A DNA stretch of 64,000 bases, from NCBI GenBank assembly GCA_041690135.1, contig JAWLHY010000001.1, forward strand, positions 384,001 to 448,000, given 5' to 3'. The DNA comes from Armatimonadota bacterium. GTDB lineage: Bacteria; Armatimonadota; SYMT01. The translations under genes and the position numbers were made by a program. Within the stretch, counting starts at the first letter, position 1. Each line of letters starts with the position of its first letter. This document shows positions 37,571 through 49,351 of this stretch, in pieces. A model generated the notes under the pieces. That model saw only the letters and a program-made list of their open reading frames with translations. It ran no database searches and was not told where the DNA came from.

Positions 37571-38797
37571 TCACTCTGGAGGGGGTCCGATATATCGCGC
37601 CCGCGGGCGGATCAGGCGTCCGCTGCCGTACTGTTCGATGGCGTGGGCGATCCAGCCGGCCGTGCGACCGAGAGCGAACAACACCAGGGGGGCTTCGGGG
37701 GGCAGGTCGAGGACCCGCGCCAGCGTCACCAGCGCGAAGTCGATCGTGGGATGTTCCCGGACCAGGGTGAACGCCTCGCCGGCCGTCTCCCGCGCCAGCA
37801 GCCGGGCGGGGGAGGAAGGGTAGGCCGTCTCCAGGGCTTCCAGCAGGTAGCGGCCGCGGATGTCGCCGGTGGGATAGAGGGGGTGACCGAAGCCCGGCAG
37901 GCCCTCCCCGCGACTCAGGCGACCCGCCAGGGCGGCTCCCACATCCGGCGCGCCCTCCACCTCTCGGAAGAGGGCATCCACTCGGGCGGTGTGGCCCCCG
38001 TGCCGGAACCCGCTCAGGGCTGACAGGCCCGCCCCGACCACGGCGTAGGGAGTCGCGCCGGCCGAGGCGACACACCGGGCGGTGAAGGATGACACGTTCA
38101 ACTCATGGTCCGCGCACAACACCAGCGCGGCATTCAGGAGGGGCTCCGCACCCGGCTCGTCCGGCGCCCAGGCAGCCGCCAGTGATCCCGCCAGGTTCCC
38201 CGGAAGGCGCTCACCGGTAACGGTGGAAAAGAGCAGGGAGAGGATCCGCGCGCCCGCCCCCGCGACCGCTTCGGGCCGGAGATCCCAGGCTGCCGGATCG
38301 GCGGCCCCTATCGCGGGCAGCACGGTCTGGAGCCGGTGGAAGAGGCCCAGGTGTTCCACTGCTGGTGAGAATTCCCGCACCGCCGCCTTCTCCCGCGCCT
38401 TCGCAAAGAGGGGGGCGGCCGCGACCGTCTCGCCGGTCCAGAGCAGGGTCGCCACTTCTTCGAATGGGGTCGTGGAAGCCAGTTTTACGGCATCTATACC
38501 CCGGTAGTAGAGGCGCCCGTCCGCAATCAGGGTGAGGCCCGATTCCAGAATGGGCGTGCCCCAGTCCAGCGCCCCCTGCACGGCACCCTCAGGGTCGCGA
38601 CGCCGCTCCTTCCGCGCCTGGAGCAGCCGCACGTCTTCCGCGGAGTAACGCCGTCCCCGGCGCCGGCTCTCGTTGCCTTCCGCGCTTTCGGAGCGGATCA
38701 GCCCCCGGCTCACGTAGGCATACACCGTTTCCAGCGTCACCCCAAGTGCCTCCGCGGCTTCTTTCGCGGTCAGATACTGCGACTCTCTCGCTGGCAT
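37571..38797 (-). CDS. HTH (excisionase/MerR-like) - citrate synthase fusion, probable regulator
   Basis: YLTAKEAAEALGVTLETVYAYVSRG HTH; DHELNVSSFTAR, HGG, GFGHPLY, DFAL citrate synthase motifs. Confidence 0.88.
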   Translation of the reverse strand: MPARESQYLTAKEAAEALGVTLETVYAYVSRGLIRSESAEGNESRRRGRRYSAEDVRLLQARKERRRDPEGAVQGALDWGTPILESGLTLIADGRLYYRGIDAVKLASTTPFEEVATLLWTGETVAAAPLFAKAREKAAVREFSPAVEHLGLFHRLQTVLPAIGAADPAAWDLRPEAVAGAGARILSLLFSTVTGERLPGNLAGSLAAAWAPDEPGAEPLLNAALVLCADHELNVSSFTARCVASAGATPYAVVGAGLSALSGFRHGGHTARVDALFREVEGAPDVGAALAGRLSRGEGLPGFGHPLYPTGDIRGRYLLEALETAYPSSPARLLARETAGEAFTLVREHPTIDFALVTLARVLDLPPEAPLVLFALGRTAGWIAHAIEQYGSGRLIRPRARYIGPPPE

Positions 38798-38885: not shown

Positions 38886-40052
38886 GTGACGATGACTGCC
38901 GACTATCGGCCCGGGCTGGAAGGGGTGATCGCTGCGAAGACGGCACTGAGCAGCGTGGATGGGACCGCGGGTGAACTATTGATCCGGGGTTTCCCGGTCG
39001 AGGAGCTGGCTCCGCGGGCCACGTTCGAAGAGTGCCTGTGGCTCCTCTGGTATGGTGAGCGGCCGGACGGCGCTCAACGAGTCGCCATTCAACAGGCGCT
39101 GGAATCGCGGAGAGTCCTGCCGGCGCCGGTGCTGGAGCTCCTGCGCCAGGCGGCCGCGGAACCCCTCGACCCGATGGATGCGCTCCGGATGGCGGTGGGC
39201 GCCCTCTCGCTGGGCACGGGTCCCGACGGGCTGGAAGCCGTTTCGACCTTCAGCAAACTAGAGTTAGAAGCGCTGCGCCTGGTGGCGGCCTTCCCGCCGC
39301 TGGTGGCCGCCTATCACCGCCTCCGGCAGGGGCTCCAGCCGCTGGAGTCTCGTCCGGATCTCGCTCACGCGGCGAATTTCCTGTACCTGCTGACCGGCGA
39401 GGAGCCGCATCCCGCTCGTGCTCGCGCCCTGGAGACCTACCTCAACACGGTGGTCGACCACGGCCTCAACGCCTCCACGTTCACCGCGCGGGTCATCATT
39501 TCTACCGGCACGGACCTGGTTTCCGCCATCACCGGCGCGGTCGGCGCGCTCAAGGGCCCGCTCCACGGCGGCGCGCCGGGCCCGGCGCTGGAGACGGTTT
39601 TCGCCATCGGCCGCGAAGAGGACGCAGAACCCTACCTCCGCGATTTACTGGAGCGGGGCCAGCGTTTGATGGGCTTCGGGCACCGGATCTACAAGGTCCG
39701 CGATCCCCGCGCCGAAGTGCTCTCCCGGGAAGCCGCGCGTCTCTTCCTGGAGGCCGGTGATCGGAACCTGTATGAGCTGACCCGCCACGTGGAGCAGGTG
39801 GCCGTTCAACTACTGGAAGAGTACAAACCCGGCCGAAGACTGCAGACCAACGTCGAGTTCTACACCGCGCTGCTGCTGCACGGCATCGGTCTGCCGGTGG
39901 AACTGTTCACCCCCACCTTCGCGATCAGCCGCGTCGCGGGCTGGACCGCCCACTGCCTGGAGCAGATGCGCGACAACCGGATCTTCCGCCCGCAGTCCCT
40001 CTATACCGGCCCCACGGGACGGCAGTGGGACCCCACTCCGAATGGGGTTTGA
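38886..40052 (+). CDS. Citrate synthase (CitA-like, NVEF subtype)
   Basis: PGLEGVIA, DHGLNASTFTAR, GPLHGGA, GFGHRIY, TNVEFY; AGGAGG RBS. Confidence 0.92.
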   Translation: MTMTADYRPGLEGVIAAKTALSSVDGTAGELLIRGFPVEELAPRATFEECLWLLWYGERPDGAQRVAIQQALESRRVLPAPVLELLRQAAAEPLDPMDALRMAVGALSLGTGPDGLEAVSTFSKLELEALRLVAAFPPLVAAYHRLRQGLQPLESRPDLAHAANFLYLLTGEEPHPARARALETYLNTVVDHGLNASTFTARVIISTGTDLVSAITGAVGALKGPLHGGAPGPALETVFAIGREEDAEPYLRDLLERGQRLMGFGHRIYKVRDPRAEVLSREAARLFLEAGDRNLYELTRHVEQVAVQLLEEYKPGRRLQTNVEFYTALLLHGIGLPVELFTPTFAISRVAGWTAHCLEQMRDNRIFRPQSLYTGPTGRQWDPTPNGV

Positions 40053-40698: not shown

Positions 40699-40908
40699 AT
40701 GGGTTCGTTCGGAAGCCCGATCCCGCTACGACACGTCTCGTAACCTCGCCCCGAATGATGGAGCAGGGCCCCCGGAGGCTCGGCAGGGATGACCAGTGAG
40801 GAACGTTCGAGACTGCTCCGGGGGGCTCGAGAGAGGCGCGACTGCAAATTGGGAGTTAACCGCGGAGGCTGTTGTTCCCGAGTTAGATCCCAACACGAAA
40901 GGACTGGC

Positions 40909-41688
40909 ATGCTGCCCATGAGCGAGGGAACCGTGTGGAAACGTGGGGTGGTCAGGGCCGGATGGCTCGGGCTGGGTGCCGCGCTCATCTTGTGGGTCCT
41001 CGCTCCGCGGCAACCTTCCCGGGCAGAGATGGAACGGGAACGGGTCGCCACGCCGGAGGGAATGGTCTACGTCCCCGGCGGAACGTGTCTCATCGGCTCG
41101 CCCGACCCGGATGATAGCGATGCGCCCGCCATGCGGAAGGTGTTCGTCCCTTCCTTTTACCTGGACCGCCTGGAAGTGACGAACGCCGAGTTTCGACGGT
41201 TCCGATCGTCCCACGCCTACCCGGAGGGGGAGGACCGGCTCCCCGTCACCAACGTGCAGTACGAGGAGGCGGAAGCGTACGCCCGCTGGGCCGGGAAGCG
41301 GTTGCCGACGAACGAGGAATGGGAGAAGGCGGCGCGGGGAATCGACGGCCGGAGGTATCCCTGGGGCAACGGGTGGGACCCGAAACGGGTGGCGCCGCGC
41401 GCCCGCCGTAAGCCGGTGCCTGTGCCCGATGGCGGTCACTGTCCGCCATCCCGCGTACAGCCGGTGGGGACCGTTCCGGCCGGCCTCAGCCCGTTCGGGT
41501 GCCTGGATATGGCCGGAAATGCCTGGGAGTGGGTCTCCGGGTTCCATGGGGGTAACCGGGAGCAACGGATCATCCGGGGTGGTGCCGTCGGCTACGGAGA
41601 GCGCGCTTGCCGCACCTACTCCCGCGGGATCGAGGGCGCGGGCGTTACGTGAAGGGACGTCGGATTTCGCTGCGCGAAGTCACCGTAA
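40909..41688 (+). CDS. FGE-sulfatase/SUMF1-family protein, probable selenoprotein (in-frame TGA at 41650-41652)
   Basis: EVTNAEF, PVTNV...A.AYARWAGKRLPT.EEWEKAARG, DMAGNAWEW; the family-terminal GFRC motif is encoded after the TGA (T-U-R-D-V-G-F-R-C-A-K-S-P-TAA). Confidence 0.85.
41663..41681 (+). promoter_or_regulatory. Candidate bacterial SECIS hairpin
   Basis: GATTTCGC-TGC-GCGAAGTC, 8-bp stem starting 11 nt after the TGA, G in the loop. Confidence 0.6.
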
Positions 41689-41696
41689 TCAGCACA

Positions 41697-43583
41697 CTAG
41701 GCAGGGGCGAGTAGGCCTCGCTCCATCACCACGTCCTTGGCCAGGGTATGGTAGCCGGACGCCTCGAAAAGCACGGTCACGCCCTCGTCGGTGACGCGGG
41801 TGACTTCTCCGGATCCGTACTCGGAATGGGTGACGTGATCGCCGACCCGCACCGCGTCGAGCCAGGTCCGGGGCTCGGGCGGCTCCGGCGAAGGGTCCTC
41901 CGCGGAGGGCGGCGCGGTGACTTCCAGTAGGCCTTCGCGTTCCACGACCTCGCGGGACAGCACCTTTCGTTCTCCGGTATCAAAGTCCACCGTGAGGGTG
42001 TCGCCTTCCGTACTGGAGACTCGACCTTCGCCCCATTCCCGGTGACGCACCTGGGCGCCGGGTTGGAACGCATCCGGTTCAGTCACTTCCGGAGCGAGGT
42101 CGGTGCGGAGGTCGTTGTCGCACCAGTCGCAGTTCTCGAACTCGGTCTCCTCCCCGAAGTAGTTGAGCAGGTAGCGGCGACGGCACTCCCAGAGCTCAGC
42201 GTAGCCGCGGACCATCTCCAGGCGGCTGCGCTCGTAGCGCTTGCGCCGTTCTTCGCATTCCAGCGAGATTCGCTCGGGATCGAAGTCCTCCACGCGGAGG
42301 CGCACCGAGTCTCCGGTCGTGTCGAGCATGCCTGCCGCGGTTAGCAACTCGATGGCGCGCGCCGCCTTCGCCTTGCCCAACCCGGTGGCGGCCCGGAGGT
42401 CGGCCGGAGTGATCGGGGCGCCGGACCGTAGCGCCTTGCGGATCTTGCGCAGGTCCTCGACGGCGACCCGGCTGCTGCCGCCCAGAAAGGCCGCCCGCCC
42501 CAGGTCGGCGGGACGGTAGATCAGCACGCACCGGGCCGGCTCCCCGTCGCGACCGGCTCGCCCGGCCTCCTGGTAGTACTCTTCCACGCTGGCCGGCACG
42601 TCCCGGTGGATCACGAAGCGCACGTCCGGCTTGTCGATGCCGAGACCGAACGCATTGGTGGCGGCGATCACCCGCAGTTCGCCCGCCATGAAGGCTTCCT
42701 GAATGCGGTCGCGGTCCGCCTTCTTCAACTGGCCATGGTAGCAGCCGGCCTCCACGCCCCACTCCCGCAGCCAGGCGGCAGTCTCTTCGGCTGCTCGGGT
42801 GGTGGCCGTGTAGATGATGCCGCTACCCTGCATCATTCCGGCGAGCCGCTCCGCGAGATCCGGAGGGTACCGCTCGTCTTCGCCCTGGAAGAGGGTTCGC
42901 AGCACGGAGAAGTCTTCCTCCTCCTGCCGGACCGTGCGGACCTCGAAGAACAGGTTCGGCCGGTCCACCCCGGAAACGATGACCCGCGGCCCCCGCAGGT
43001 CGAGCCGCTCCACGATATCCTGCCGGACCCACGGGGTGGCCGTCGCCGTCAGGGCCAGCACCGGGGGCCGGCCCAGCCGTTCCACCGAGTGAGGGAGCGC
43101 CAGGTACGCCGGTCGGAAATCATAACCCCATTCGGAGATGCAATGCGCCTCGTCCACGGCCACCAGCGAGATTTCACCCGCGGTAAACTGCGCGACGAAC
43201 TCCGGGTTCTCCAGGCGCTCGGGGGTGACGTAGAGGATCCGCGTTTCCCCCTCCCGGGCGCTCGCCAGGCTCTCCTCAATCTGTCGCGCCGATTGGCCGC
43301 TGTGGATGACGCCCGCCTCAACCCCCTGCGCCTCCAGGGAGTCCGCCTGGTCCTTCATCAGGGCGATGAGCGGAGAGACGACCAGGGTGATCCCCGGAAG
43401 AAACTGTGAGGCTACCTGGTAGACCAGAGACTTGCCTGCCCCCGTCGGCTGGATGTAGAGGACGTCCCGCCCCCCGAGGAGAGTGCGGATGGCCCGCTCC
43501 TGGCCGGGGCGGAAACGGTCGTGGCCGAAATCGTTGCGCAAACAGGCGAAGAGTTCCTCGCCCCCCGGTTGCCGGTTCCCCAT
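41697..43583 (-). CDS. recQ: RecQ family ATP-dependent DNA helicase with two C-terminal Tudor/SH3-like repeats
   Basis: PTGAGKS, DEAHCISEWGYDFRPAY, ATNAFGLGIDK, YYQEAGRAGRDG, CRR...C..CD Zn motif. Confidence 0.93.
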   Translation of the reverse strand: MGNRQPGGEELFACLRNDFGHDRFRPGQERAIRTLLGGRDVLYIQPTGAGKSLVYQVASQFLPGITLVVSPLIALMKDQADSLEAQGVEAGVIHSGQSARQIEESLASAREGETRILYVTPERLENPEFVAQFTAGEISLVAVDEAHCISEWGYDFRPAYLALPHSVERLGRPPVLALTATATPWVRQDIVERLDLRGPRVIVSGVDRPNLFFEVRTVRQEEEDFSVLRTLFQGEDERYPPDLAERLAGMMQGSGIIYTATTRAAEETAAWLREWGVEAGCYHGQLKKADRDRIQEAFMAGELRVIAATNAFGLGIDKPDVRFVIHRDVPASVEEYYQEAGRAGRDGEPARCVLIYRPADLGRAAFLGGSSRVAVEDLRKIRKALRSGAPITPADLRAATGLGKAKAARAIELLTAAGMLDTTGDSVRLRVEDFDPERISLECEERRKRYERSRLEMVRGYAELWECRRRYLLNYFGEETEFENCDWCDNDLRTDLAPEVTEPDAFQPGAQVRHREWGEGRVSSTEGDTLTVDFDTGERKVLSREVVEREGLLEVTAPPSAEDPSPEPPEPRTWLDAVRVGDHVTHSEYGSGEVTRVTDEGVTVLFEASGYHTLAKDVVMERGLLAPA

Positions 43584-48805: not shown

Positions 48806-49351
48806 CTATTTCTTCGGGATGCCGAGGGCTTCCAGCTTGGCCGCCAGGTCTTTGCCATGGTTGGCCGGCTTGACCGCCTTATCGATGTCGCGGATGATGC
48901 CTTTTTCGTCGATGATGAAAGTCCACCGGTTGGCGAAGCCGCGCTCGGGATTGAGCACGCCCAGCGCCTTAGCGAAGGACTTTTCCGGATCGCTGAGGAG
49001 CGGGAAGTTGTATTTTCCCTTCTCCGCGAACTGCTTGTTGAGGTCGACCGGGTCGGTGCTGGCACCGAAGTACTGGGCTTTGAACTTGGTAAGTGCGCTC
49101 ATCTCATCACGGAGTGAGTTACATTCGGCCGTTCACCCACCGGTCAGGGCTTTGGGGTACCACGCGATCACGACCGCTGACTTGCCCAGGAACTGCCCGA
49201 GGGTATAGACCTTTCCGTCCGTTCCCTCGAGTTTGAAGTCGGGAGCCTTGTCGCCCACCTTGGGCGCCGGGGCTTCCTGTCCCTGGACCGGCGTCGGACC
49301 GCCAAAGGCCATGAGCGCGACCAACGCGCCGAGGCCGAGCAGCCACTTCAT
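48806..49351 (-). CDS. Exported BCP/PrxQ-type peroxiredoxin, probable selenoprotein (TGA 49133-49135 at the peroxidatic Cys position)
   Basis: ORFs 49133-49351 and 48806-49102 are in frame: YPKALTGG-U-TAEC matches PxxxTxxC; downstream FPLLSD and RWTFIIDEKG; signal peptide. Confidence 0.88.
49103..49118 (-). promoter_or_regulatory. Candidate bacterial SECIS hairpin
   Basis: CTCA(C)TC-CGT-GATGAG on the - strand, +15 to +30 after the TGA, GU in the apical loop. Confidence 0.5.

Follow-up and report, generated by a model that had tools for sequence, protein, structure and literature searches.

The window studied here, a stretch of 64,000 nucleotides from an Armatimonadota bacterium (contig JAWLHY010000001.1, positions 384,001 to 448,000), carries at 40909-41688 (+) a gene for a protein with the fold of the formylglycine-generating enzyme (FGE, SUMF1), in which the UGA at 41650-41652 very probably encodes selenocysteine (Sec). 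The gene bears the signature of a recoded UGA, the codon exchanges with cysteine codons across the subfamily, the RNA directly behind it is constrained, and the FGE fold lacks the canonical cysteine pair. An initial annotation of the window had proposed that the TGA is a Sec codon, and this proposal has gained support from the Sec genes of the genome, the Sec/Cys column in homologs, a conserved hairpin and the co-occurrence with selA. All positions below are counted from the first letter of the window.

A reading frame that continues past the UGA

Translated with table 11, the open reading frame (ORF) that begins at 40909 terminates at TGA 41650-41652, the sole in-frame TGA of the gene. As the initial annotation had pointed out, the frame runs on beyond this codon: AGG GAC GTC GGA TTT CGC TGC GCG AAG TCA CCG TAA reads R-D-V-G-F-R-C-A-K-S-P and ends in the TAA at 41686-41688, giving a read-through product (P0001) of 259 residues. 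The start at 40909 matches a database gene call (P0002, 247 aa) and a near-invariant M1 in the alignment of homologs (A1). The FGE-sulfatase domain PF03781 is matched by residues 50-257 over model positions 3-255 of 255, with 153.5 bits against a cut-off of 23.3. This match reaches the end of the model only if the TGA is read through, in line with the earlier claim that recoding is needed to finish the fold. The 9.1-Mb genome has 11 PF03781 matches, and none but that of the 40909-41688 gene is interrupted by a stop. The features of the gene are as follows.

40897-40903, + strand: Shine-Dalgarno-like GAAAGGA, 5 nt before the ATG, read off the sequence
40909-41688, + strand: full coding sequence of the putative FGE-fold selenoprotein, 259 residues, Sec at 248, TAA included
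40930-41001, + strand: hydrophobic N-terminal helix, residues 8-31, KRGVVRAGWLGLGAALILWVLAP, from the sequence and from helix H8-31 of the AlphaFold2 (AF2) model
41056-41679, + strand: FGE-sulfatase domain PF03781, residues 50-257 (Pfam, 153.5 bits)
41593-41595, + strand: codon of Tyr229, aligned with the first Cys of the FGE CxxxxC pair (BLASTP against the paralog)
41608-41610, + strand: codon of Cys234, aligned with the second Cys of the canonical pair (BLASTP against the paralog)
41650-41652, + strand: in-frame UGA, probably read as selenocysteine 248 (TGA or Cys codons at this column across the subfamily)
41663-41681, + strand: hairpin resembling a selenocysteine insertion sequence (SECIS), over the codons for G-F-R-C-A-K-S, with an 8-bp stem and a UGC loop
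41686-41688, + strand: predicted true stop TAA, read off the sequence

The UGA column in homologs

Homologs were collected by a search of 5.8 billion proteins, from which the best 120 matches (54-100% identity) were used. In 112 of them, the gene call of the window included, the last residue is the Thr that precedes the TGA column; the remaining 8 run on as T-C-[HNR]-D-T-G-F-R. At the DNA level 169 loci (L030-L198) from the genomes of relatives, from GTDB species genomes and from metagenome contigs were scanned, and the motif of the subfamily, E-x-x-x-x-[TI]-[U/C]-x-D-[VTY]-G-F-R, was found in 33 of these. At the column 24 of the 33 have TGA, in 21 distinct sequences, and the other 9 have a Cys codon (TGC or TGT); a further six genomes with a non-TGA form also have Cys there (6/6). 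The comparison of homologs that had been suggested as a check therefore finds Cys or TGA at this column, and no other residue, within the subfamily. In 66 more distant FGE domains that were scored the column holds no conserved residue. Where an organism name is given, the TGA forms are from Chthonomonadaceae, Armatimonadaceae and Armatimonas metagenome-assembled genomes (MAGs), and Lentisphaerales, Verrucomicrobia, Hydrogenedentota and Nitrospirales are among the sources of Cys forms.

A side observation concerns the Sec form L045 (SYKE01000275.1), which lies on a MAG contig labelled Actinomycetota. The 60 nt from its TGA onward are identical to those of L034, from a genome (G003) of the same family as the window's genome, and the taxon label or the binning of L045 may be wrong.

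Behind the TGA the frame is kept, and the codons for Asp (GAC/GAT) and Gly (GGA/GGC/GGT/GGG) vary synonymously; in most sequences the stop falls 1-3 codons past the hairpin. These data bear on the simplest alternative, in which the TGA is a true stop, the 247-residue product is functional and the GFRCAKSP frame is the relic of a recent truncation. Gene callers and the NCBI annotation do end the proteins there, as in the NCBI entry P0009 (244 aa), which ends at the column under the bare name 'SUMF1/EgtB/PvdO family nonheme iron enzyme', and the read-through is assigned here from sequence rather than from protein or read data. Yet the 10 downstream codons remain in frame and constrained at the amino-acid level in 21 distinct sequences that diverge to ~41% identity and differ by synonymous changes, the Pfam domain is incomplete without these codons, the Cys-form orthologs are full length, and the TGA form is seen only where Sec machinery was found. 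A true stop is thus a most unlikely explanation.

The TGA might also have come from a mistake in sequencing or assembly, or from a recent nonsense mutation that made a pseudogene in one genome. The read matches (contigs) of two soil-metagenome runs would leave room for this, since they cover only 40780-40924, 41160-41367 and 41496-41532 and none spans the TGA. The same codon, however, stands in the column in 26 of the 36 matching genomes in a sample of 401 and in 10 metagenome contigs, by which an error or pseudogene is effectively refuted, its probability being negligible. The initial annotation had named an assembly error as a way in which the Sec proposal could fail; the recurrence of the TGA in 21 distinct sequences from separate assemblies means that it is not one.

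Selenocysteine machinery and its co-occurrence with the UGA form

The genome was also to be searched for the sel genes, and all of them were found: selA (566.6 bits), selB (383.6 bits), selD (369.6 bits) and tRNA-Sec (67.2 bits) each score above the curated cut-off. The genes for selA, selD and tRNA-Sec (L009, L020 and L022) lie outside the window, within 3 kb on C1:1149453-1152359, and selB lies apart at C8:51343-53220. The selD gene carries one in-frame TGA of its own; a pattern search for a Sec site in selD gave no match.

The window itself contains a second gene with an in-frame TGA, as had been claimed for a candidate 7.5 kb away. This gene is real and is an AhpC/TSA peroxiredoxin at 48806-49351 (-), with 110.5 bits and its TGA at 49133-49135; table 11 splits it in two, and its start resembles a signal peptide. 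The TGA sits in A-L-T-G-G-U-T-A-E and so in a TxxU motif, which in Table 1 of PMC13188914 is that of an experimentally verified Sec-peroxiredoxin family. The peroxiredoxin is a member of this known family. The fold downstream of its UGA includes no clean hairpin (-6.6).

The co-occurrence of the TGA form with the Sec genes was studied across the phylum, in 401 evenly sampled genomes, with E <= 1e-40 taken as an ortholog-level match. Such a match is present in 36 genomes, 26 times with one internal TGA and 10 times without. In eight of these ten the same motif holds a Cys codon, one is cut by a contig end and one belongs to a different FGE subfamily. Against a background of selA in 215 of the 401 genomes, selA occurs in 25 of the 26 genomes with the TGA form, and the exception (G373, 86% complete) has selB at 383 bits. 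Only one of the eight Cys-form genomes, G040, has a selA match, and this match (G040:C1:1103614-1104993) contains an internal TAG; with its Cys form (L033), G040 may be a lineage caught losing the use of Sec. In the four Cys-form genomes checked for selB only EF-Tu-like matches below the cut-off were found.

The direction of the exchange was studied with a tree built quickly by maximum likelihood, with the Sec column masked, from 22 Sec rows, 16 Cys rows and 3 outgroup FGE domains (41 in all). Three of the five loci tried as outgroups gave an ORF; identical rows were removed, as was any row with under 150 residues ahead of the column. A clade of seven Cys rows, from other phyla and from G032, is placed outside a clade of 31 rows that holds all the Sec forms. 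Within the latter, which is dominated by Sec, Cys forms occur in nested positions three times or more, as with L120, whose sister at 99% support is the Sec form L039. The tree needs 4 changes between Sec and Cys, as against a mean of ~13 after shuffling. Rooted with the outgroups, it reads as a single change from Cys to Sec followed by several reversions from Sec to Cys, with a root that is less than certain because of long branches (L038 and two of the outgroups).

The downstream hairpin

The hairpin behind the UGA is formed by GAUUUCGC (41663-41670) and GCGAAGUC (41674-41681), which enclose the loop UGC (41671-41673), the codon of Cys255. Its stem has 8 pairs, one of them G-U, and its first base is the 11th after the TGA. 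A hairpin is found at the same place in all 19 complete, distinct TGA sequences, with a minimum free energy (MFE) of -9.1 to -15.9. In the alignment of these 19 rows (A3) 96.1% of the 152 cells are paired, and only 29-62% when the partners are slid by 1-3 columns. Pair 30-46 of this alignment occurs as AU (10), UA (5), CG (1) and GU (1), two U-A pairs of the hairpin alternate with U-G, and at least four stem pairs never or hardly vary. The covariation of the stem is therefore modest, and the choice of codons is the stronger signal.

In the Sec loci the codons TTT for Phe (14/14), CGC for Arg (14/14) and GCG for Ala (13/13) are fixed; in other FGE domains that encode GFRCA[KR] the same codons are used in 25, 14 and 24 of 54 cases, respectively. 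All 13 scorable Sec loci form 6 bp or more of stem in the fixed register, as do one of six Cys-form loci and five of the 54 other GFRCA[KR]-coding domains; an 8-bp stem in this register is formed by 10 of the 13 Sec loci and by none of the 54. In loci with another residue for the C of GFRC (GFRG, GFRV, GFRL) the loop differs and the stem is kept. In L119 a change from CGC to CGG is offset by a shifted 8-bp stem with a GUGCG loop.

The initial annotation had likened the hairpin to bacterial SECIS elements, which lie just 3' of the UGA, and the likeness holds for the constraints quoted in section 5 of PMC13188914. The bacterial SECIS (bSECIS) model given there has a loop of 3-9 nt with G at loop position 1-2, a stem of 4-16 bp, 16-37 nt from the UGA to the loop and an MFE of at most -7.5. 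The window hairpin, with its 8-bp stem, UGC loop, spacing of 18 nt and hairpin MFE of -9.5, lies within all of these quoted limits, as do 18 of the 19 distinct orthologs. A scan of 41500-41800 against Rfam (E <= 10) gave chance-level matches only (mir-24, Moco-II, ar14), and in a terminator and promoter scan the hairpin was not terminator-like and no promoter was found.

Besides the reads that miss the TGA, several points weigh against Sec at codon 248. The 8-bp hairpin that the initial annotation had seen 11 nt after the TGA is indeed present at 41663-41681, but alone it is no more stable than chance: the single sequence (46 nt) folds unexceptionally (MFE -11.6, z = -0.50), and 53 of 200 shuffles are as stable, so that the hairpin draws its weight only from its conservation among orthologs. 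Compensatory change is seen in only one stem pair, and the GFRCAK peptide itself favours such a stem, as the five non-Sec domains and the one Cys form with at least 6 bp illustrate. In the Sec locus L125 the hairpin loop is CUCGC, with no G at either of its first two positions. A search of sequencing runs listed four from soil metagenomes, each sharing only a small part of its words with the sequence, and none of RNA. Finally, the association with selA is overstated as a statistic because the genomes of one phylum are not independent; the pattern is nonetheless one that Sec decoding predicts and a plain stop codon does not.

The broken loop rule of L125 could also be taken to favour a recoding of the UGA to a residue other than Sec (Cys, Trp or Gly, by a near-cognate tRNA or independently of SelB), with a hairpin that merely stimulates read-through, the more so as the identity of the inserted residue is deduced from sequence rather than by chemical means. 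We regard this as very unlikely, given that only Cys replaces the TGA in orthologs (9/9 and 6/6), that the TGA form tracks selA and selB almost perfectly and that TGA is otherwise a stop in the ordinary ORFs of the window's genome. Decoding of the UGA as Sec thus keeps a high probability.

Fold and conserved residues

An AF2 model of the read-through product has an FGE-like fold with a mean predicted local distance difference test (pLDDT) score of 78.9; the alignment used as input held 70 sequences, of which only 9 reach the C-terminus. Foldseek matches the model with probability 1.00 to CalU17, Cu-FGE (6xtp, 6s07), ToxD, human FGE, pFGE, EgtB, OvsA, PvdO and 1y1e. In a profile search of the PDB sequences with A1 the alignment ends before the active-site loop. 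The hydrophobic helix 8-31 follows a start rich in K and R, which suggests that it is a signal anchor or a signal peptide and that the domain behind it is extracytoplasmic; the protein is thus predicted to be membrane-anchored or exported.

The same genome encodes a canonical FGE paralog with the sequence GGSHLCSPNYC. In a BLASTP alignment with it, Tyr229 falls on the first catalytic Cys, Cys234 on the second, and Sec248 on an Ala four residues before GFRC. The initial annotation had stated that the canonical CxxxxC pair is absent: this is borne out for the first Cys, which is Tyr229, but Cys234 does align with the second. Tyr229 is invariant, both in the 112 homologs that end at the column (112/112) and in the full-length rows (39/39); Cys234 is Cys in 82 of the 112 and in 19 of the 39. 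The U/C at 248 is invariant in 39 of 39 rows and is the sole invariant thiol or selenol of the subfamily, whose motif can be written as RGGAxGYG...R.Y..x[IV]EGxxxT-[U/C]-xD[VT]-GFR.

Two other cysteines, Cys198 in a G-C-L-D-M-A-G-N motif (41500-41502) and Cys255 of GFRC, agree with each other in 31 of 38 subfamily rows. This covariation suggests that they form a structural disulfide. Cys178 was considered as a conserved column as well; it is near-invariant in A1 and was not upheld in a wider alignment, which has indels there.

Comparison with related systems

The window protein shares PF03781, the fold and the GNAWEW, RGG and GFRC motifs with the Cu-dependent FGE/SUMF1 proteins. It differs from them in several respects: an invariant Tyr takes the place of the first Cu-binding Cys, the subfamily has Sec or Cys four residues before GFRC where the canonical paralog has Ala, and the protein is shorter (~40 fewer residues from GNAWEW to RGG) and has a hydrophobic N-terminal anchor. 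The CxxxxC pair of Cu(I)-binding cysteines after RGGS, which defines a canonical FGE, is not found in it. Among the 18 ortholog loci compared, none has a sulfatase gene as a conserved neighbour; a genome-wide sulfatase search was not made.

Among the solved structures the best sequence match is pFGE/SUMF2 (1y4j, E = 2.3e-25), which can be aligned through GFRCA. It likewise lacks the CxxxxC pair, whereas it has Ser at the Sec column and is not a selenoprotein. To our knowledge no catalytic activity has been found for pFGE.

The sulfoxide and selenoxide synthases EgtB, OvoA, SenA and OvsA have an FGE-like C-terminal domain as well (PDB 4x8b, 8u41, 8k5i), and SenA and OvsA act on selenium substrates. 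None of these enzymes is itself a selenoprotein. The window protein passes no model of NCBIfam release 20.0; the best is EgtB with 73 bits (cut-off 360), followed by SenA with 65.3 (420) and the N-terminal model of OvoA with 18.2 (400). The matches are partial in models of 380-413 positions, and a protein of 259 residues has no room for the N-terminal part, so that it falls short of the full-length score, including the N-terminal iron-binding domain, that marks EgtB, OvoA and SenA.

CalU17 of the calicheamicin pathway (6vqp, 7ml6) is the top Foldseek match (E = 3.3e-13). It shares the G-C-x-D-M-x-G-N motif that holds Cys198; the alignment ends before the C-terminal region with the Sec column.

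A proposed role for selenocysteine 248

We propose that codon 248 would be decoded as Sec by the SelA/SelB/SelD/tRNA-Sec system of the genome, and that the hairpin 11 nt downstream, built from the codons of GFRxAK, would direct this decoding. Sec248 could then be the catalytic or metal-binding centre (nucleophile, redox residue or metal ligand) of an extracytoplasmic oxidoreductase. Its partners might be Tyr229, Glu242, Thr247 and Asp250, all invariant, in a pocket akin to the substrate groove of FGE, with a chemistry that would differ from formylglycine generation, the two-Cys Cu(I) oxidation of a sulfatase cysteine.

Several observations count against this mechanism in its details. The pLDDT of the AF2 model drops to ~50-57 over residues 221-250 and to below 50 at 228-234, which makes the position near the active-site face that the initial annotation gave to Sec a tentative one, and no second Cys is invariant. 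For these reasons, and because there is no conserved neighbour gene, any specific chemistry of Sec248 is a guess, to be held with low confidence.

The protein could also be a true selenoprotein whose Sec neither catalyses nor binds metal but has a structural or regulatory role, for instance by forming a selenenylsulfide staple to Cys234 or Cys198. Disulfides are frequent in exported proteins, Cys234, which falls on the second catalytic Cys of FGE, is present in many homologs (82/112), and the covariation of Cys198 and Cys255 (31/38 rows) would fit such a role. The other cysteines are not invariant, unlike U/C248 (39/39 rows), and in selenoproteins at large Sec is costly and is used almost only at catalytic redox or metal sites. 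A structural Sec is therefore unlikely, though it deserves more credit than the alternatives discussed above.

On balance we lean, by a small measure, towards an uncatalogued family of extracytoplasmic FGE-fold selenoenzymes. Such a family would have given up the Cys-pair copper site, with Tyr in place of the first Cys, and would use a lone Sec from the last loop instead, in a new Sec active site (possibly Sec-Tyr or Sec-metal) that serves a substrate other than a sulfatase. It would be common in soil Armatimonadota and would have reverted to Cys where no Sec machinery was found.

The FGE-domain superfamily is large, with 92,075 representatives at E <= 0.001, among which the top matches, ranked by summed scores, are mostly long multi-domain FGE proteins. 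Since Sec almost always marks a catalytic redox or metal site, it singles out the residue that is probably active in an orphan branch of this superfamily and would make the function of that branch testable. Reading the codon as Sec would also mend many gene models, as 112 of the 120 nearest database entries end at it, and would add a fold that is C-type-lectin-like and not thioredoxin-like to the selenoprotein families. The near-perfect split of the Sec and Cys forms by the presence of sel genes would offer a clean natural example of Sec/Cys exchange.

Selenoprotein catalogues and literature

New selenoprotein families still emerge from screens. Table 1 of PMC13188914 (2026), which lists 119 prokaryotic families and subfamilies and includes those of Haft and Tolstoy 2025, has no entry for PF03781, FGE, SUMF or sulfatase. 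The comparison with published family lists, which had been suggested for the window protein, thus finds no FGE-fold family in this table; Table S2 of BSepDB and the deep-Sep lists might hold it. The selenoproteins catalogued in the table follow the same logic as the gene described here, with a UGA and a downstream stem-loop, Cys homologs and an occurrence in Sec-utilising genomes only. Families with Sec near the C-terminus, such as UXX-star and KCU-star, are among them.

The main texts of PMC13188914, PMC12013277, PMC13326102, PMC9312934, PMC2398784, PMC1976440, PMC5029168 and PMC1794560, taken apart from their supplements, do not mention sulfatase, formylglycine, FGE or SUMF. In the full-text literature no paper was found that ties selenoproteins to FGE, SUMF1 or a sulfatase-modifying factor. 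As far as these main texts and the one catalogue table go, the window protein most likely represents a new and undescribed selenoprotein family, which the supplements may list.

Gene neighbourhood

An all-against-all BLAST of the ORFs of at least 100 aa around the 18 ortholog loci revealed no conserved neighbour genes beyond close relatives, and since no neighbour is shared across the loci the surroundings offer no operon clue to the function. In the window the putative selenoprotein gene has a DUF6714 gene on one side and a RecQ gene, convergent with it, on the other, with citrate synthase and GH43 genes also nearby. The stop of the RecQ-type helicase gene (41697-43583, -) falls 9 nt past the TAA of the selenoprotein gene, and the helicase carries additional C-terminal DUF3553 and PcrA/UvrD tudor-like segments. 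Two citrate-synthase-like genes, at 37571-38797 (-) and 38886-40052 (+), are divergent. The one on the plus strand matches the Pfam family Citrate_synt with 390.9 bits, and the one on the minus strand starts with a stretch that by eye resembles a helix-turn-helix (MPARESQYLTAKEAAEALGV...).

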